The notes under the pieces were generated by a model, which saw nothing but the letters and a program-made list of their open reading frames with translations, was not told the DNA's origin and did no database searches. From the NCBI GenBank assembly GCA_041497195.1, contig JBGQGB010000002.1, positions 1-42,139 of the forward strand: 42,139 nucleotides of DNA, written 5' to 3'. This stretch comes from Candidatus Doudnabacteria bacterium. Its GTDB lineage: Bacteria; Patescibacteriota; Doudnabacteria; UBA920; 2-01-FULL-46-14. Shown here piece after piece: positions 20,984 through 29,367 of this stretch; position 1 is the first letter of the stretch; every line of letters begins with the position of its first letter. The translations under genes were made by a program, and so were the position numbers.

Positions 20984-21006
20984 TACGAATTGTTTAAGGA
21001 GGATCG

Positions 21007-21348
21007 ATGTCTAAAAAATCGAAAGAGAAAGATCAGTCCAGGCGCGAATATGCTGCCACGCATGCTCAAGAAGTAAGCGCTGCTATAGTTTCCGCCTTGT
21101 ATACGCCAAAAGAAGCCCTGGCAATCAGTCCCTCAAACAGAACCTGGCTCGAGGTAATCAGAAATGTTGCCGCCCGTTTGGGCAAGGTCTCCTTCAGGAA
21201 AATTCTCGAGATACAAGAAGCTGACGATCACAAGAACTTCAAGCTGTCAGATATGGACGGCGCAAACGTGAAGATAGCTCTTCAACAGGAAAACCCGAAT
21301 ATTTCTACTTACCCCTCTTTGGAGGCGAGGCATTTCTCAAGCATATGA
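21007..21348 (+). CDS. Hypothetical protein (113 aa)
   Basis: Promoter and strong SD; no motif recognised. Confidence 0.75.
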   Translation: MSKKSKEKDQSRREYAATHAQEVSAAIVSALYTPKEALAISPSNRTWLEVIRNVAARLGKVSFRKILEIQEADDHKNFKLSDMDGANVKIALQQENPNISTYPSLEARHFSSI

Positions 21349-21575
21349 CCCGCTGTCCTTATTGTCTGGCTCTTCTGAGCTCCGAAGAAGCTGCCGAGGA
21401 GCCTACCGAAGAAGACGAGGACGTTGCACAAGCGGCAAGTGCATTTGCTACAGATTTCGCAAGAATATCAACGGAAGAAATCGCCAAGGTGGGAATCCAG
21501 CGCACTGAAACAACGGAGGACACGCCAGAATTTAATACCATCCACGATGAGCTCAAAAAACCGAAATCAAACTAA
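21345..21575 (+). CDS. Hypothetical acidic protein with N-terminal CPYC (76 aa)
   Basis: ATGA overlap with the upstream stop; followed by hairpins. Confidence 0.6.
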   Translation: MTRCPYCLALLSSEEAAEEPTEEDEDVAQAASAFATDFARISTEEIAKVGIQRTETTEDTPEFNTIHDELKKPKSN

Positions 21576-21842
21576 CACCCACCCCCGCACAAGGTCACAC
21601 TGAACCAGTTTCAGTGGCGGTATACAAATGACCTTTTTGTTTTGTTCAAAAAATCGCCTGCTTGGCGATTTTGATCTGCAGGGGCTATGGGACGAGGTAA
21701 AATTTTTTTATCAAGAATCGAGAGTACACTCAAGAAACCAGAAGAAAATCAGAACCAGGGCCCCCTGCTAGTTGTACAATAAATAACATAAGGCGCTGGA
21801 TCAACTCCAACGCCTTATTGATTGCGATACACTACTATCCTT

Positions 21843-22538
21843 CTATTCTCCTCCGTGGTTGTGAGTTGTTAGATATGCATCGATCCGTGGACGAACGGCT
21901 TCTGCGAAGAAAAGCTGAAGAAACCGCAGGACTAGGGTCTCGATCTTTTGCTCTCCCAATCGGCCTTGACCCTGGGGGCAGCCTTCATCCAGATACCGTG
22001 ATCGAAGAAAACTCCAGGCAACATTGAAAAGACATTGCCTGATCTCCCCGTCGGCCCAATGGGAAAAACGATTATCGAGATGACCCATCTCCCGAGCGTC
22101 TTTAATAAGTTGGTCGACGACTCGAAATGTCTCTGACATCGCAGCAATTTTACGTCTTCCTTCTGGGCACGTCTCGATTATTCGTTCCCGCAACACGGCC
22201 TTCCCATATCCCAGGCCCTGCTCATCGTCAGTCCTAAAAACATCGAGTGTTGCCTCGAAGACGGACACAAGCTGGTCTATCGGGGATGCCATCCTGACAC
22301 TTCCAAGCGCATCTGCAACACGATCTCCGACTCTGTTGAGCAAGTCGTCGCAAATCTCATTGAAGATTGTGTCTAGTGTTGTTCGGTTTTTTGGTTTGGG
22401 GAAATGCGTGTAGACAACAGCAGGAGTGATACCCGCCTTCTTCGCTATGCAGTTAATCGTTACGCAAGCCAGGCCCCCCTTCGCTATGAGACTGGCAGCA
22501 GCAGCGAGAATTCTATTCTTAGTAACTATTGCTTTCAT
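21843..22538 (-). CDS. TetR/AcrR-family transcriptional regulator
   Basis: RILAAAASLIAKGG...TINCIAKKAGITPAVVYTHF HTH. Start moved to ATG 22538, which has an SD GGAGGG. Confidence 0.88.
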   Translation of the reverse strand: MKAIVTKNRILAAAASLIAKGGLACVTINCIAKKAGITPAVVYTHFPKPKNRTTLDTIFNEICDDLLNRVGDRVADALGSVRMASPIDQLVSVFEATLDVFRTDDEQGLGYGKAVLRERIIETCPEGRRKIAAMSETFRVVDQLIKDAREMGHLDNRFSHWADGEIRQCLFNVAWSFLRSRYLDEGCPQGQGRLGEQKIETLVLRFLQLFFAEAVRPRIDAYLTTHNHGGE

Positions 22539-22701
22539 GCTCCCTCCTTTCGGACTCATTTCCCTTCAGATCAGTCCGCAAAGAGGGTAATCTTGTAAGT
22601 TACTAAACATAGGGCAGTTAGCGTTGTTAGTCAAGCAGAGAAGAGAATATACGCCGATGAGCAAAGCAAAAACCGAGGCTTTATTCTCGGTCATTGTACG
22701 T

Positions 22702-22775
22702 TGGCAGGGGTGCAAGGAGTTGAACCCTGACTAACGGTTTTGGAGACCGTTGTGCTACCGCTACACCACACCCCC
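22702..22775 (-). tRNA. tRNA-Trp(CCA), CCA encoded
   Basis: GGGGGTG/CACCCCT acceptor, ACGGT-CTCCAAA-ACCGT anticodon arm, CAGGG-TTCAACT-CCTTG T arm. Confidence 0.96.
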
Positions 22776-22784
22776 ATTTCCTGG

Positions 22785-22813
22785 ATTATATCAAATACCT
22801 CGGGCTATCTCAA
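22785..22813 (-). promoter_or_regulatory. tRNA-Trp promoter
   Basis: Minus strand TTGAGA, 17 nt, TGaTATAAT. Confidence 0.8.
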
Positions 22814-22851
22814 TAAAATAAATGGGCCGGATGCGAGTGTTTACACTCTAA

Positions 22852-23277
22852 TCAATCCGACCCGTATTTTTTGCTGCAGTTGATCTCTACGATCTGATAG
22901 TGCTCAGAGGTTTCCGGCCAGCCGTGTTTTTTGAGTATCGGCAGCAGATGTGCCAAGGCTTTGCCAGGATCTTTATTCTCTGCAAATAATTCCGGTTTAC
23001 CCTCAAGCCAATATAGCCAGTCTCCACTAGTCTTGTCGCGGCAGCACTTGATGAACGCACGAGCTGCCGTGACTGTCACTGGCTCCTTTTTTTGCTCCTC
23101 AGCTTGAGTTTTTTTCCATCTAAGTCCGATTTCGTGCAGATGAGCGGCTAATGCTGCAAATCCACAAAAACCCGCGACAGCTAGGACGAACCAATTCGGG
23201 ACGCGTGTGTCTGCAACCATCAAAAGAAGAAAACAAAAGAAGGCCACTCGTTTTGCGTAATGCAGAAAATAAATCAT
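22852..23277 (-). CDS. Hypothetical 2-TM membrane protein (141 aa)
   Basis: Start set at ATG 23277 (SD GGAGG; promoter TTGACA-17-TAGTCT at 23328-23300). Confidence 0.75.
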   Translation of the reverse strand: MIYFLHYAKRVAFFCFLLLMVADTRVPNWFVLAVAGFCGFAALAAHLHEIGLRWKKTQAEEQKKEPVTVTAARAFIKCCRDKTSGDWLYWLEGKPELFAENKDPGKALAHLLPILKKHGWPETSEHYQIVEINCSKKYGSD

Positions 23278-23452
23278 GGTTTCCTCCTTCAGGCGAGCCA
23301 GACTATCATATTCTAGCTGCCTTGTCAATTGCCCCTGACTTGGCAATTTTTTATTTTGACCAAAGCCTTGAGAAACAGCTATTCTACTATGATAAACTCG
23401 ATTACCTAGTCGAGAGTTATCTTGCACTTTTCATCCATACAAGGGGGGTGTT

Positions 23453-26314
23453 ATGATCGTGAAATTGTACAAGAGCAGAACACTGGGTACAGACCCGATC
23501 GCTTCGAGACTTCTCAGCCAATTGCATGCTGGAGGTTACCGCACGATCAAAGCCATCAGATTGGAACAGGTTTTGCGAGCCGAAGGCGATATCTCGGACA
23601 TTGACGCTTTGAAGAGACTTTTTCACCATCCGTTGCTCGAAACAGTCGGACAGCGAAGTCGTCTGAATAGCAAAAAGCCTATTGTCGAAGTCACATATCA
23701 GCGGAGCATGACTGATCCGGAGCTTGACTCTATCATGCATGCGGCTGCTTCCATGGGGATTTGCGGCCTCGTTTGGGTGCGACTCTCTACGCGTTACGAA
23801 TTCACAGGTATTGGCAGGAAAGAAGCCAGCAAGCTGGCCGCTCAATTTTTCTACAACCCGTTGGTTCAGACGCTTTTGATTCCAGGTAAGGAATGGACCA
23901 CGCTCGTCCCACAGGGTGAGCCAGGCGGAGTGGAGCAAATCGACCTCGCGCTTATGTCCCTGCGCCAACTCAGAAAATTTTCCGACGATCGCCTCCTCCA
24001 CATGCCTTCTGAACAACTCCTCGCAGTGCAGAAGTTTTTCATCCGTGAGGGAAGGCCATCTCGTGATGCTGAGGTTGAGATGATTGCTGCCAAGTGGAGC
24101 GACCATTGCTACCATACTACGTGGAAGCGTCTCGGTCTTTTGGAGTATTTACGCAAGACCACGGAAAAGATCAACCACCCGCTCGTCGTTTCCGCATACG
24201 TCGACAACTCTGGCGTGATGCGTTTCTACGACGGCTGGGCGCTCAATTCCAAAGGCGAAACCCACATTTTTCCGACCTTTGGCGTCGACCCGTATTGTGG
24301 AATCATGACCAAACACGGGGGCGTGATTCGCGACATCATTTCCACAGGCCAGGGTGCGTGGCCGTGGGGTGGCACGACTGTCATGGCCACTTGCGATCCG
24401 CGGATCGCTCGATCGCGGGTTCCGAAAGGTGCGTTTCATCCGCAGTTCGTTTTGCATGAAAGCATCCGAGGAACCCACGATTACACCAATCCCATGGGGA
24501 TTCCGATGATGTGGTCTCAGTATCTCGTGCATCCAGACAACTGGAAAGGACTGGCACTGGGACACTCGTTCGGGATTCTGCCCGAGAACAAGGCCAAAAA
24601 GGGGGTACCGCTGCCGGGCGATTTTGTAGTGCTCATCGGCGGTCCGACCGGAAACGATGGCATTCACGGAGCGACCTCCAGCTCCGGAAACATGACAGCC
24701 AAAACCAGGACAGCTGACGCGGCTTCAGTCCAGATAGGTATGCCGATTGAAGAACGCAAGATCATGGAAGCGACACCCCTGCTTCGTGGTGCTGACTGCA
24801 TTCGTGCTTGTCAGGATTGCGGAGCGGCCGGGCTGGCTTCCGCAGTGGGAGAATTGGGCGAGGCGTGCGGCGTGTGGCTGAACCTCGCTTGGGTCCCGCT
24901 CAAATGTGCCGGATTGAAAGATTACCAAATTTTCCTGTCCGAGAGCCAGGAGCGGTGCATTCTCGTGATTCCGCGAGAAAAGCTTCCTCTGGCGTTGGAG
25001 ATTCTGGCGGATTATGAAGTGCGCGCGGCGGTCATCGGGATATTTACCGATACTCGCCGTTGCCAAGTCGTCAATTCTCCGGAAATGAACCAGGGACTTT
25101 GGTCGTCGCATCCGACAGCGCAAATGAGCGGAACAATCGCAGTCGATCTACCCTATAGTTTTCTCAATTCCAGCTGTCCGTTACCAAAGATCAAGACCAG
25201 GAAACCGGCAGTTCAACTGAAACGTTTTCAACCAAGAGTTCCGCAGACTGAATCCCAGTGGGTGCGGCTAGTGTGCGAGCATTTGGCGCACTATAATATC
25301 TGCGATCAGTCAGAGGCGGCTCACCGCTACGATCAGACGGTGCAGGGAAATACTGTCCGAACCTATATCGGCGGGGCGGATGATCGAATGCCTGATGATT
25401 TATCTGTTGTCACTCCGCTTCGCGGCCATTCCCATGGCGCGGGGACTGCCAACGCCGTCAATCAGTTTTACGGCGAAATCAGTCCATCTGTCCAGGGCCG
25501 GTTGGTGGCGGCACAGGCTTTTGCCAAACTAGTCGCGGCCGGCTTCGGCCCCGATGACATCACGCTTTGCGCCAACGTGTATTCGCCGAGAGCCACAGAT
25601 TCTCCGGAGAATGCCTGGCGGCTCAAAGCGCTAGTGAAGCGAGGCTATGGACCGGCATCCGCGATATTAGGAGCGCCCGTGATAACAGGAAAAGACAGCA
25701 GCAGCGGAACCTTCATCACCAAAAACGGCCGGCGAATTGATGCGCCCTTAACTCTCGATATCAACGCCCTGGGGCGTATGCCAGAAGTTGGCCGGCTCAT
25801 CCCCAAACCCTTTCGCAAGCCGGGGGATACGATAGTTTTGTATCATCCAGGTTTGCGGAAATTGAGGCTCGGGGGCTCGGTGTTTTACGATTTGTTCCAC
25901 GAGCGGGGCAGCGAACTCTCACAGCTTGATCTCAGGCAGCTGCGTCTAGGGCTGGAGAGGTATCACCGACTCACAGAAGCGATCAAATGCATTCGTTCCC
26001 AGTCAGTGGTATGCGAGGGGGGACTCATTCGCAGGCTGTTTGAAAAAGGTTTCGGCAGCGGACTCGGTTGTTCTGTCCGCTTACCAGGAGATTCGCTGCA
26101 GTGGTTGTTTGGCGAACCTGGCGCTGCGGTCTTGTTCACTACTGACCTTCAAACATTCACCTATTTTGAGGCGAATGATTTGCACGTGCTGGGTCAGGTT
26201 ACGGCCGAGCCTGCTATCGAAGTCTTCGCTTCAAACCAGAAACGCCTTTTCAAGGCTTCACTCGAGGAGTTTTCATGCGGGTGGTCCAAAACGTTTGCGG
26301 AGGTGGTCCAGTGA
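23453..26314 (+). CDS. purL: Divergent phosphoribosylformylglycinamidine synthase subunit PurL with N-terminal PurS-like extension
   Basis: WSDHC, IRDI, TGNDGIHGAT, VQIG, QDCGAAGL, LSESQER, LFGE motifs in PurL order. Confidence 0.85.
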   Translation: MIVKLYKSRTLGTDPIASRLLSQLHAGGYRTIKAIRLEQVLRAEGDISDIDALKRLFHHPLLETVGQRSRLNSKKPIVEVTYQRSMTDPELDSIMHAAASMGICGLVWVRLSTRYEFTGIGRKEASKLAAQFFYNPLVQTLLIPGKEWTTLVPQGEPGGVEQIDLALMSLRQLRKFSDDRLLHMPSEQLLAVQKFFIREGRPSRDAEVEMIAAKWSDHCYHTTWKRLGLLEYLRKTTEKINHPLVVSAYVDNSGVMRFYDGWALNSKGETHIFPTFGVDPYCGIMTKHGGVIRDIISTGQGAWPWGGTTVMATCDPRIARSRVPKGAFHPQFVLHESIRGTHDYTNPMGIPMMWSQYLVHPDNWKGLALGHSFGILPENKAKKGVPLPGDFVVLIGGPTGNDGIHGATSSSGNMTAKTRTADAASVQIGMPIEERKIMEATPLLRGADCIRACQDCGAAGLASAVGELGEACGVWLNLAWVPLKCAGLKDYQIFLSESQERCILVIPREKLPLALEILADYEVRAAVIGIFTDTRRCQVVNSPEMNQGLWSSHPTAQMSGTIAVDLPYSFLNSSCPLPKIKTRKPAVQLKRFQPRVPQTESQWVRLVCEHLAHYNICDQSEAAHRYDQTVQGNTVRTYIGGADDRMPDDLSVVTPLRGHSHGAGTANAVNQFYGEISPSVQGRLVAAQAFAKLVAAGFGPDDITLCANVYSPRATDSPENAWRLKALVKRGYGPASAILGAPVITGKDSSSGTFITKNGRRIDAPLTLDINALGRMPEVGRLIPKPFRKPGDTIVLYHPGLRKLRLGGSVFYDLFHERGSELSQLDLRQLRLGLERYHRLTEAIKCIRSQSVVCEGGLIRRLFEKGFGSGLGCSVRLPGDSLQWLFGEPGAAVLFTTDLQTFTYFEANDLHVLGQVTAEPAIEVFASNQKRLFKASLEEFSCGWSKTFAEVVQ

Positions 26315-27039
26315 AACCAAAAGCTCTCGTTCCTTGGATGCCAGGGACCAATTGTCATCTGGAGATGGCCCGGGCATTTGAACTTGCGGGAGCGATTGCG
26401 GAGATTGTACCGCTCCGCAGGTTTCTCGCTCAGCGCCGCAAATTCAGTGATCATCAACTCATCGGCTGGGCAGGGGGGTTTAGCTGGGGCGATCACTTAC
26501 GAGCTGGATGGATCGCAGCGATTGACCTCACGAATCCTCTTCGCGACCAGGTCCTGGAGGCAAGAGAGAAAAAAGTCCCGATGTTGGGCGTCTGCAACGG
26601 GTGCCAAATCTTGGTCTCAGCGGGATTGCTGCCGGGCCTCAGTGAGCTCGGGCATCCTACTGCGGCACTTGATACAAACTCTAGCGGGCGTTTCGAACAT
26701 CGGAATGCAGTTTCGATCTATATCCAGGAACAGTCGAAGGTAAAGTGCTTGTGGACTGAGCAGCTCGGCGGGCAAACTATCTGTCTGCCAGTTGCCAATG
26801 GGGAAGGCAGGTTCGTCTGGCTCGAGAAAACCGTCTGTCGCGTCGTTGCGACTTATGGTTCTCCACGAGGGGAGATTTCATATCCCGCCAGTCCCAGCGG
26901 CAGTCCAGTCGCAGGCATGATCAATGACGATGGAACTATCCTAGTCTTGATGCCTCACCCAGAGCGCCGCATAGATATGGATCACGGCGGCGTTCAAGGG
27001 CTAGGGATTTTTCAAGCGGGGGTGGCGGCTGTGCTCTAA
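26311..27039 (+). CDS. purQ: FGAM synthase glutaminase subunit PurQ
   Basis: PGTNC, GGFSWGDHLRAG, GVCNGCQIL (catalytic Cys), MPHPER (His/Glu). GTG start overlaps the purL stop. Confidence 0.92.
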   Translation: MKPKALVPWMPGTNCHLEMARAFELAGAIAEIVPLRRFLAQRRKFSDHQLIGWAGGFSWGDHLRAGWIAAIDLTNPLRDQVLEAREKKVPMLGVCNGCQILVSAGLLPGLSELGHPTAALDTNSSGRFEHRNAVSIYIQEQSKVKCLWTEQLGGQTICLPVANGEGRFVWLEKTVCRVVATYGSPRGEISYPASPSGSPVAGMINDDGTILVLMPHPERRIDMDHGGVQGLGIFQAGVAAVL

Positions 27040-27055
27040 ATTTCACGAGATGTTT

Positions 27056-27105
27056 GCGCCTGGTCTGCTTTCCCGAAAAGGGGAGCGGGCCAGGCGTATT
27101 TTTTT
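27056..27105 (+). terminator. purL-purQ terminator
   Basis: Long stem GCGCCTGGTC...GGCCAGGCGT with a GAAA loop and T run. Confidence 0.85.
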
Positions 27106-27111
27106 CAAAGT

Positions 27112-27140
27112 TTGACGAAACTGCCATAATTTGCTATAAT
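27112..27140 (+). promoter_or_regulatory. Sigma70 promoter upstream of yjbQ leader
   Basis: TTGACG, 17 nt, TGcTATAAT. Confidence 0.85.
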
Positions 27141-27271
27141 GTATGTACGATTCAAAAGGCTGAATAGAAACAAAACATTACAGAAGCCTCGGAGTAGTTA
27201 ATTTGGTCTTGCCCGAAGGCTTCCCTAAAAAACAAATGAAAAGAAAAGCATCCTTGGTGTTTTCCGCTCTT

Positions 27272-27310
27272 ACCCTATTTTCGCTTGAAAAGCGAGATTT
27301 GGGTTTTTTT
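27272..27310 (+). terminator. Intrinsic terminator between that promoter and yjbQ
   Basis: ACCC..TTTCGCT-tgaa-AAGCGAGA..GGGT followed by a 7-T run. Confidence 0.75.
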
Positions 27311-27444
27311 ATTTTACGTTTGATTCACAAATTTTAATTCATGCTATCCCAAATATTTTTGCAGTTTGCAGCGGAGGTCAGGTCGCATTATCGGGTTTGG
27401 ATGAGTCAAATATATAAAATTTTATCCAGGAAATAAGCAAACTC

Positions 27445-27885
27445 ATGACCACCTACGTTAAAGAGATCGAATTTGAAACTCACACGCAATTTGAAATCCG
27501 CGATATTACCAAAGATGTCCAGGACGCTTTGAGCAAAAGCAAAGTTCGTTCCGGGATCGCGGTAGTGTTTTCCCCTCACACTACGGCGGCAATTCGTATA
27601 AATCACGACGAGGCCCTGCTCAAGCAGGACATCATGAAAATGCTGTATCGGTTAGTACCAGTGGACATCAATTACGGACACGACTTTTTCGAAATCCGCA
27701 CCAATGCCAAGCCGGACGAACGTTCGAACGGGCACGCTCACGTGAAAGCATTTTTGCTCGGGGATAGCGAGACTATCCCGGTTGATAAAGGCAAGATGCT
27801 TCTCGGCGACCGGCAGAGCATTTTTTTTGTCGAGCTCGACGGTGGGCGCAAGCGCAGCGCTATCATTCAAATTTTTGGAGAATAA
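27445..27885 (+). CDS. yjbQ: YjbQ family protein (secondary thiamine-phosphate synthase family)
   Basis: PHTTAAI, NGHAHVKA, LGDRQSIFFVELDG motifs. Confidence 0.9.
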   Translation: MTTYVKEIEFETHTQFEIRDITKDVQDALSKSKVRSGIAVVFSPHTTAAIRINHDEALLKQDIMKMLYRLVPVDINYGHDFFEIRTNAKPDERSNGHAHVKAFLLGDSETIPVDKGKMLLGDRQSIFFVELDGGRKRSAIIQIFGE

Positions 27886-27921
27886 AAATTAAACACTTGG
27901 GGAAGGGGGTGATATTGTAAA

Positions 27922-28599
27922 ATGTCAACCGGAGAAGTAATAGCTATTTCGCTTCAGAGCCTCTACGACCGGCTCATCAGCTTTTTGCCGGTATTGGTTG
28001 TCGCTGTCGTGGTGCTCATTTTAGGTTGGATTCTAGGAGCCGGTTTGGGAACTATCGTGGAAAAGATTCTTGACACTATCAAAATCGACAGCCTAGCCAA
28101 CAGTCTCGGACTAGACAGATTGTCTGCCCGCGCCGGTAAGAAACTTTCCGTGGCAGCATTTGGCAATTGGCTCGTGAAGTGGTTTTTTATTGTTGCGACT
28201 TTTTTGGCGGCGGCCGATATTTTGGGCCTCGCCCAGGTCAGCAATTTTCTCTATGGCCAAGTCATTCCTTATTTTGGTGATGTCATTGTAGCGGTTGCGA
28301 TAATGCTGGTTGGGCTTGTGGCTGCTGATTTTTTGCAAGGCGTGGTGCGTCATTCGTTGCACGCCGGTGGCTTGCATGTGTCTGATACTTTGGCTCTCAT
28401 TACCAAATGGGCCATTCTGGTCTTCGCCTTTTTGGCAACGCTCGCGCAGTTGCACGTCGCTACGGATTTTGTCAAGGAGTTGTTCCTCGCGTTTGTGGCC
28501 ATGCTCGCTATCGCGGGAGGCCTAGCCTTTGGTCTCGGCGGCCGAGATCATGCCAAGAAATTCTTGGATGCTATGGAAAAGGACCTGAACGGGAAGTAA
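27922..28599 (+). CDS. TM-helix-repeat membrane protein (MscS-associated/CmpX-like)
   Basis: FLPVLVVAVVVLILGW repeat, AGGLAFGLGGRD C-terminal motif. Confidence 0.8.
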   Translation: MSTGEVIAISLQSLYDRLISFLPVLVVAVVVLILGWILGAGLGTIVEKILDTIKIDSLANSLGLDRLSARAGKKLSVAAFGNWLVKWFFIVATFLAAADILGLAQVSNFLYGQVIPYFGDVIVAVAIMLVGLVAADFLQGVVRHSLHAGGLHVSDTLALITKWAILVFAFLATLAQLHVATDFVKELFLAFVAMLAIAGGLAFGLGGRDHAKKFLDAMEKDLNGK

Positions 28600-28626
28600 A
28601 CCAAATAGGTTTTACCATGCAGCTTC

Positions 28627-28655
28627 AAAAAACCTCGCATCCAGCGGGGTTTTTT
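28627..28655 (+). terminator. Terminator
   Basis: AAAAACCTCGC-atcca-GCGGGGTTTTTT. Confidence 0.75.
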
Positions 28656-28770
28656 GTTTGGGTAATAATTAACCCCCCACTTTCCAAGATGAGAAAGTGG
28701 GGGGCCCCTAATTACTCCTAACTTTCGGAGTACGATTTGATTGTTCCCGGGCCATCTGGCGGTATTGCTG

Positions 28771-29367
28771 CTAGTTCGCTGGCGCCGGGTTTATGGCCAG
28801 CTTGGGAAGCGGGCTGCCAAACATCTGTACAGTTACGACTGCGTTCTGGCCGTTGGATTTATTGGAAACCACCGCGATGCCGACCTCGGAAAACAGGGGG
28901 GAAAGCAGATTTTCGCGGTGAGAGGGGCTTTTGAGGAAATCCCGCTCCAATTCATCAGTGTTCGTGTAGTTGATTGCCAGGTTTTCGCCGGCGAACAGAT
29001 AGGCAAAACCGGCTTGTTTTATGAAATCCCATGGCTGCAGGCCGCTCGGCGAGGTGTGGGCGAAATAATGGCGGGCCAGGATGTCGTGAGCTTTGGCCAA
29101 AGCCGCGCTTTGCAGCTGCCGATTCTCGACCAGAGGAGGAAGGCCGTTTTTGAGGCGGTCCTGATTGAGAGCGCTCAAAAGGTTGCCGCTGGTCAGGTTG
29201 GCCTGGTTCGCTTCGCGGGACGGCAAATAAATCGCTGAAAACAGGATGATAGTTGCTATCAGTAGAATTTTGAATACAGTCAGACTGGGTCTGCCGGCGG
29301 ATTCTTCGTGATACTGCGCGAAATCCGCTTGCAAGCCCAAAGTCGCCACCGCTGGGCTGTCAGTCAT
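28771..29367 (-). CDS. CAP/SCP domain protein
   Basis: LNQDR..NGLPPL, YFAHTSP, AGENLA, SPSHRENLL, EVGIAV. Confidence 0.92.
   Translation of the reverse strand: MTDSPAVATLGLQADFAQYHEESAGRPSLTVFKILLIATIILFSAIYLPSREANQANLTSGNLLSALNQDRLKNGLPPLVENRQLQSAALAKAHDILARHYFAHTSPSGLQPWDFIKQAGFAYLFAGENLAINYTNTDELERDFLKSPSHRENLLSPLFSEVGIAVVSNKSNGQNAVVTVQMFGSPLPKLAINPAPAN

Follow-up and report, generated by a model that had tools for sequence, protein, structure and literature searches.

What does a purL-purQ gene pair do when no other purine gene lies near it, when its substrate-site motifs differ from the canonical ones, and when its host belongs to the Candidate Phyla Radiation (CPR), most of whose members lack de novo purine synthesis? 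Such a pair is found in a window of 42,139 bp, which is positions 1-42139 of contig C2 (JBGQGB010000002.1) in a Candidatus Doudnabacteria genome (GCA_041497195.1, here G000; 965,789 bp in 13 contigs, completeness 98.65%). An earlier, sequence-only reading proposed a rewritten substrate pocket and, as its consequence, an amidine-forming enzyme with a different substrate or a horizontally acquired relic. By descent, the pair belongs to formylglycinamidine ribonucleotide (FGAM) synthase. It is of the PurSL type and falls in a sub-clade, type C, which as a whole departs from the canonical loop and fails the score cut-offs of curated models. With a probability of about 0.8, the pair encodes a three-component-type FGAM synthase (EC 6.3.5.3) and is an intact part of a once-complete, probably acquired set of pur genes. 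We infer that it converts formylglycinamide ribonucleotide (FGAR) to FGAM.

Architecture of the PurSL-PurQ pair

The two genes and the motifs under discussion are located in the window as follows.

23453..26314, plus strand: purSL (protein P0001, 953 amino acids), an open reading frame (ORF) call; PurS-like N-domain, FGAR-AT linker and FGAM synthetase domain
24095..24109, plus strand: WSDHC motif; His218 and Cys219 invariant in family alignment A1, aligned to WSEHC of 3VIU and 1VK3
24257..24277, plus strand: ETHIFPT motif; Glu269 and His271 invariant, His271 equivalent to human H311 and Salmonella H296
24299..24322, plus strand: GIMTKHGG loop; the type C form of GA(A/T)TGxGG, in which Lys287 and His288 are clade-specific
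26311..27039, plus strand: purQ, glutaminase subunit (protein P0002); likely start GTG at 26311, alternative in-frame ATG at 26275

The domain bounds of P0001 are approximate: residues 1-150 for the PurS-like domain, 175-221 for the FGAR-AT linker and 198-951 for the FGAM synthetase. Among the Pfam models, AIRS_C matches at 91.6 bits and FGAR-AT_linker at 27 bits, and PurS gives a sub-threshold match of 19.6 bits at residues 78-140. The NCBIfam PurL models align to residues 198-950 and score 300.2 bits (NF002290, cut-off 648) and 281.5 bits (TIGR01736, cut-off 525.75). P0002 matches GATase_5 at 151 bits and TIGR01737 at 154 bits, the cut-off of the latter being 177.8. A synthetase of tandem PurM-like halves (AIRS N plus AIRS_C, a pseudo-dimer) is supported by relatives, which give two AIRS_C matches per gene, and by the match to the PurL fold. 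An AlphaFold2 model of P0001, made with a 29-sequence family alignment, has a mean predicted local distance difference test (pLDDT) of 88.3 and a predicted template modelling score (pTM) of 0.90. Its confidence is low only at residues 271-290, the stretch from ETHIFPT to GIMTKHGG, where the block-mean pLDDT is near 50. The top Foldseek matches are the large PurL of Salmonella (6JTA, 1T3T) and human FGAM synthase (FGAMS; 9NB3), with TMq 0.85-0.88 over the whole length, and the small PurL (3VIU) reaches a TMq of only 0.66. The whole-length superposition on large PurL and the weak hidden Markov model (HMM) match together point to a PurS module in P0001.

The persistence of the catalytic and metal-binding motifs, claimed from the letters of the window, is borne out in translations and alignments, and the P0001 translation does read ETHIFPT and GIMTKHGG. 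WSDHC occupies residues 215-219, ETHIFPT 269-275, GIMTKHGG 283-290 and VIRD 291-294; VQIG, QDCGAAG and SESQER are also present. His218, Glu269, His271, Asp294, Asp455 and Glu497 are invariant in the family alignment A1 and align to PurL proteins of the Protein Data Bank; His218 corresponds to the first catalytic His of PurL, and Glu269 (of ETH), Asp294 (of IRD), Asp455 (of QD) and Glu497 (of SESQER) are the acidic Mg/ATP ligands. Human H311 touches the trapped iminophosphate intermediate (PMC13013826), and Salmonella H296 forms the end gate of the ammonia channel with T310 (PMC7124931). The equivalent of T310, Thr286, is kept in P0001. Of the canonical Gly-rich loop before (I/V)RD, P0001 retains only this gate Thr and the final GG. 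The Cys-His-Glu triad of PurQ is intact, with Cys107 in GVCNG and with His238 and Glu240 in MPHPE.

PurSL has the layout of a large PurL, N-domain, linker and synthetase, minus the fused glutaminase; PurQ is the separate glutaminase. In the proposed mechanism, Cys107-His238-Glu240 of PurQ would hydrolyse glutamine, and the ammonia would pass from PurQ to the synthetase site. ATP would phosphorylate the amide oxygen of FGAR to give an iminophosphate, which the ammonia would turn into FGAM. This mechanism is proposed because His218, Glu269, His271, Thr286, Asp294, Asp455 and Glu497 are all kept, and from knowledge of the family.

A clade-wide motif signature

The rewritten pocket is not peculiar to this gene, since a large and conserved clade normally carries the same variant motifs. 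The homologue family is about 955 amino acids long; its members are named 'AIR synthase-related protein' by NCBI and 'PurSL' or 'FGAM synthase' by JGI. The homologue search covered 5.8 billion proteins, and motifs were counted in the best 120 matches, which are 45-59% identical to P0001. Among these, WSDHC occurs in 97, GETH(N/I)SP(S/T) in nearly all and YGGIMTKHGGVIRD in 84; over 100 homologues have GETH(N/I)xP and GG(I/V)MTKHGG in common. A scan of species-representative genomes, combined with an alignment, distinguished the following PurSL types. An unpublished genome (G154) was among those surveyed, and all conclusions stand without it.

Type A (Planctomycetota, Omnitrophota, Chloroflexota, Poribacteria): KVETHNHPS with GGA(N/G/A)TGxGG
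Type B: ETHNSPS with GGAMTGSGGVFRD
Type C, the type of P0001: GETH(N/I)xP with GG(I/V)MTKHGG
Type D (two Parcubacteria-group metagenome-assembled genomes, MAGs): LETHNSP with GGQ(L/M)TK(F/L)GG

Other PurSL types carry HNSP, HNTP or HNRP. The second His of HNHP also varies among enzymes that clearly function: human FGAMS (9n9w) reads ETHNFPT, and one canonical small PurL from CPR reads ESHNSPS. E(S/T)HNHP is thus not universal at its second His, and the true departures in P0001 are N272I, which is common in the clade, and the change of the loop from GA(A/T)TGxGG to GIMTKHGG.

Only 11 alignment positions, including E217D and G287K, cleanly split type C from types A and B, and P0001 has the type C state at 11/11. 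In a maximum-likelihood tree, types C and D form a clade with 100% support, sister to type B, on a stem of 1.27 substitutions per site. P0001 lies within a CPR sub-clade together with Doudnabacteria proteins, and its terminal branch measures 0.50 against a median of 0.54. The phylogeny and motif survey that had been suggested for the HIFP variant thus show the isoleucine to be common in the clade and the loop changes to be clade-wide, and place P0001 within the CPR part of type C. On this evidence, ETH(N/I)xP with GG(I/V)MTKHGG is the fixed signature of a distinct old clade and no local rewrite.

The same clade stands apart in model scores. Type A (592 bits) and type B (534 bits) score above the TIGR01736 cut-off (526 bits), and the type C proteins tested, at 432, 400, 305 and 281 bits, all fall below it. 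The vague family name at NCBI is explained by this failure of type C at the curated PurL thresholds. There is thus an annotation gap, in that the NCBI PurL models miss the entire type C clade. As a result, entire lineages would be scored as being without step 4 of purine synthesis, which can distort metabolic reconstructions, among them tallies of the kind 'CPR lack nucleotide synthesis'.

Type C serves as the housekeeping PurL in other bacteria, on the basis of co-occurrence and operon context. In the order of one non-CPR genome, G201 (31 genomes of 2.5-6.2 Mb), a type C PurSL that is 44-52% identical to P0001 is the sole PurL-like gene in 30. The sole exception is a 600-aa canonical-like fragment on a 1.8-kb contig of G201. 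PurM is present in 29 of the 31 genomes (in 28 above cut-off), and PurN lies above cut-off in 30. Closer to our genome, G135 belongs to the same order as G000 and carries the operon purB-purM-purSL-purQ-purE-purC; its PurSL is 59% identical to P0001 and identical to a protein named Candidatus Doudnabacteria. Type B loci read purF-purN/D-purSL-purQ…purH-purB-purC…purM and purC-purN-purD-purSL-purQ…purM. In a census of AIRS_C proteins, PurSL and PurM are the sole PurL/PurM-type members in G135, G029 and G202, to which G202 adds one 334-aa AIRS_C ORF, and PurD is present in all three genomes. These organisms both make FGAR and consume FGAM, and nothing else could join the two reactions, so that type C PurSL is very probably the FGAM synthase they use. 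The different substrate that had been proposed for the G000 pair finds no support here: type C is the sole PurL beside canonical PurM, PurN and PurD, it is found in pur operons, and HNFP occurs in an active human enzyme. What looked like a rewritten pocket is shared as a matter of course by a large, uncharacterised clade of PurSL proteins, and this corrects an attractive but wrong inference.

The purine pathway of G000

The statement that CPR mostly lack the pathway fits our sample, in which only 24 of 201 genomes of the same phylum hold a PurL-like gene. Outside the window, G000 holds these pur genes:

C1:332727-334055: purF, 464 bits, above cut-off
C1:136.8-141.9 kb: cluster purB-purE(like)-purC-purH
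C4: purA

A whole-genome search for purF, purD, purN and purM had been proposed as a check, and purF was the only one of the four to be found. purM was not found in G000 with TIGR00878 or by tblastn with three PurM references, and AIRS_C matches PurSL only. Neither HMM nor tblastn with two PurD references found purD in G000; the single weak match was rejected as Ddl, which adjoins an alanine racemase. The search for purN in G000 turned up only an fmt-like gene and a NeuB-linked formyltransferase. The latter, a 222-aa formyltransferase-domain protein (C1:261351-262019, 36 bits), lies directly 3' of a NeuB-family sugar synthase; it was rejected as PurN and is probably a sugar N-formyltransferase. 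purT was not found in G000 either. A complete pathway elsewhere in the genome, which would speak against a new substrate, is thus half there: purF, purE-like, purC, purB and purH are present, but purD, purM and purN/purT were not found. G000 offers, in a CPR genome that is nearly complete, a clean example of de novo purine synthesis that has been dismantled in part.

The flanks of the G135 purD gene adjoin in G000 (C2:142806-144581 and 144852-145124). The gap between them measures 271 bp and holds no trace of purD, and no remnant of purM or purD was found upstream of purSL. Neither the purB|purE junction nor the region upstream of purSL falls at a contig end. The pair has probably moved out of an ancestral purB-purM-purSL-purQ-purE-purC operon. 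The neighbourhoods were searched for enzymes that might replace the missing ones; nothing suggestive adjoins purF (topA, DnaJ, F420-ligase-like), and there is no candidate next to purBECH (alpha/beta hydrolase, PAP2) or purSL (TetR, UPF0047, MscS-like).

PurM and PurD are present in all six PurL-bearing genomes of the order that were checked for both (G135, G267, G253, G270, G266 and G247). Type C PurSL occurs in none of the 8 other genomes of G000's own family, and several PurL types are found across the order. Lateral acquisition together with repeated loss accounts best for this patchy distribution. In the family-mate G247, purD (C29:10278-11540) scores 326 bits and contains an in-frame TGA, which could mean a pseudogene or recoding; it hints at ongoing erosion of pur genes in the family. 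A Parcubacteria-group MAG of 1.2 Mb, G203, has a type D PurSL, PurQ, PurE and PurC and no PurM or PurD match, its AIRS_C matches being PurSL only. As G203 may be incomplete, it does not yet evidence a recurrent state of PurSL without PurM and PurD. The CPR type C genomes G135, G267 and G000 have no PurN above the level of fmt-like proteins and no PurT, and G135 and G267 keep PurD and PurM. In these lineages, an enzyme that escapes recognition may carry out the step of glycinamide ribonucleotide (GAR) transformylase.

Sequence conservation bears on whether the pair is a relic. Of 177 columns with a conservation of 95% or more, P0001 deviates at 5 (R181L, G282C, T454Q, W491Y and L940F) and its nearest relatives at 3-7; T454Q restores the residue of canonical PurL (QD). 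By this measure, there is no sign of excess decay in PurSL. Contigs from four sediment runs are identical to the window (0 differences), so that no ratio of nonsynonymous to synonymous polymorphism (pN/pS) could be obtained; low word shares in these runs reflect low coverage and not divergence. The GC content of purSL is 54.5% against 49.3% for the genome, at the 98.7th percentile (standard deviation 2.7% for 2.9-kb windows). All pur genes of G000, including purA, are GC-rich (52.7-58.1% on C1, C2 and C4), and for this reason the pair is not singled out as foreign. The shared richness would fit a common foreign origin, or a bias found generally in genes for conserved enzymes. The earlier suggestion of a horizontally acquired relic is thus partly upheld, by the patchy and mixed PurL types, the missing purD, purM, purN and purT and the loss of purD from its syntenic site, but the absence of decay does not agree with it.

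The pair has signals of its own:

23356..23385, plus strand: candidate sigma-70-like promoter TTGACC-18-TATTCT in the 175-bp spacer 5' of purSL; weak, 9/12 matches in a consensus scan
23441..23448, plus strand: purSL ribosome-binding site AAGGGGGG, 4 nt before the ATG at 23453; read from the sequence
27055..27105, plus strand: intrinsic terminator that ends the two-gene operon; hairpin at 27055-27098 with a 19-pair stem (11 GC pairs), followed by TTTTTTT

The likely GTG start of purQ at 26311 overlaps the purSL stop (GTGA). This overlap suggests translational coupling, and purQ is probably coupled to purSL; in every relative examined, purQ follows purSL. The terminator hairpin starts 16 nt past the purQ stop, so the pair does have its own, strong terminator, a 19-bp-stem hairpin with seven T residues 3' of purQ, as had been noted. 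The claim that the window holds no other pur gene also stands: tblastn of the window with a set of Pur references found none besides purSL-purQ. In an Rfam scan of positions 21000-29000, tRNA-Trp was the only match, with no ZTP, purine or other riboswitch ahead of purSL. This tRNA-Trp (CCA) lies at 22702-22775 on the minus strand, with a promoter close to consensus at 22813-22785. Most of the space 5' of purSL is taken up by a small divergent ORF at 22852-23278 (minus strand, about 142 aa from the ATG at 23278); it has an AGGAGG ribosome-binding site and a hydrophobic N terminus, and gave no Pfam match. Directly past the purQ terminator, the interval 27102-27310 contains a promoter close to consensus (TTGACG-17-TATAAT with TG) and after it a terminator-like hairpin (27279-27297). 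The hairpin lies 5' of a UPF0047/YjbQ gene (27445-27885), and no Rfam family matches in 27102-27310.

Competing readings and known systems

Several observations weigh against an FGAM synthase that works as such in G000. P0001 lies below every curated PurL cut-off. Lys-His replaces Gly-x in the loop beside the catalytic His and the gate Thr, and ten other positions changed on the long stem; a shifted specificity of type C is compatible with these sequence data. We know of no enzymology for any type C member. PurD and PurN/T, which make FGAR, and PurM, which uses FGAM, were not found in G000, though purSL looks constrained; this agrees poorly with a simple canonical step of a canonical pathway. 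The PurE-like gene that separates purB from purC in G000 (C1:139667-140188, minus strand) has SADR in place of the SAHR of PurE, in which the His is the conserved catalytic residue (H45 of E. coli PurE). Its product scores 71 bits against 190-218 bits for typical PurE. The same motif reads SAEK in G247 and SAHR in G135, and G267 has no PurE match.

A conserved enzyme in a broken pathway leaves room for missing or unknown genes, for a slowly decaying remnant or for a different role. It is possible, if doubtful, that the pair is a functionless remnant not yet inactivated since purD and purM were recently lost. In its favour are two or three breaks in the pathway, a PurE-like protein without the conserved His, the split of the operon in G000 and the erosion seen in the family-mate with the TGA in purD. 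However, the reading frames are intact, with a ribosome-binding site, a coupled start and a terminator; 172 of the 177 highly conserved positions are kept and the branch length is normal. The purD site is also traceless, which argues that the loss was not very recent. We regard it as unlikely that the pathway is in fact complete, with purD, purN/T and purM either left out of the assembly or the bin or replaced by non-orthologous enzymes that escape recognition, and with PurSL-PurQ running the ordinary fourth step. For this reading, the assembly is split into 13 contigs and seven pur genes remain intact, with PurSL under as much constraint as in relatives that have PurM and PurD. G135 and G267, which keep PurD, PurM and PurSL without a recognisable PurN or PurT, hint at an unknown replacement for at least one step, and G203 is a second CPR genome (type D) with PurSL/Q/E/C and without PurM or PurD. 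Against this stand the completeness of 98.65%, the negative HMM and tblastn searches of G000 with three PurM and two PurD references, and the position of the syntenic purD site and both former purM junctions inside contigs, without a remnant. No candidate gene flanks purF, the purBECH cluster or purSL, and the ORFs that adjoin PurSL in G203 have no homologue in G000.

A different role for the enzyme could take two forms. Repurposing of type C, or at least of the G000 copy, into an amidine synthase that depends on glutamine and ATP but takes a substrate different from FGAR appears very improbable. The Lys-His pair beside the catalytic His and gate Thr, the long stem with its 11 clade-specific substitutions, the failed PurL thresholds and the conservation of purSL despite missing PurD and PurM would all suit such a change. 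However, type C is the sole PurL homologue in 30 of the 31 genomes of the non-CPR order, beside canonical PurN and PurM, and a changed substrate would leave these organisms without step 4. Type C also lies within a pur operon in G135, and P0001 is without copy-specific changes at catalytic positions, its T454Q restoring the canonical QD. It is also rather improbable that PurSL-PurQ is kept under selection in a true absence of PurD, PurN/T and PurM in G000, and possibly in G203, with unknown non-homologous enzymes providing GAR/FGAR and cyclising FGAM or with the Lys-His-loop enzyme working on a scavenged or different amide substrate. If true, this would mean a non-canonical patchwork route to purines in ultra-small symbionts. 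An FGAM synthase left from a once-complete pur set remains the preferred reading, and the pair can be compared with known systems on that footing.

The large PurL/FGAMS (Salmonella 1T3T, human PFAS 9N9W/9NB3) superposes on P0001 over 953 aa, in the N-domain, the linker and the pseudo-dimeric synthetase. The catalytic His, the gate Thr and the Mg/ATP ligands are conserved, and the human enzyme likewise has F at the second 'His' (ETHNFPT). In contrast, P0001 has no fused glutaminase, PurQ being encoded by its own gene, and the identity is about 21-22%. P0001 reads TKHGG for TG(S/T)GG and DX6GAWP for DX4GAXP. The small PurL with PurS and PurQ (T. maritima 3D54/2HS4, T. thermophilus 3VIU, B. subtilis) shares the separate PurQ and the C-loop TG(R/N)DGIHGA, and provides the best sequence matches of P0001 (NF002290, 300 bits; 3VIU, 168 bits). 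It differs in that PurS is free and not fused at the N terminus as in P0001, in the score, which for P0001 is less than half the equivalog cut-off, and in the Gly-rich loop, which is altered in P0001. PurSL of type A (for example, Gemmata algarum, Planctomycetota) and type B (several CPR, Chloroflexota and Bacillota MAGs) has the same PurS-PurL fusion of about 950-1000 aa followed by purQ, the same 2-residue insertion in the DXnGAXP motif and the same JGI/KEGG-style name, 'PurSL'. Types A and B differ from P0001, to which they are only 28-36% identical, in that their loop still reads GGA(N/M)TG(x)GG and their scores exceed the TIGR01736 cut-off.

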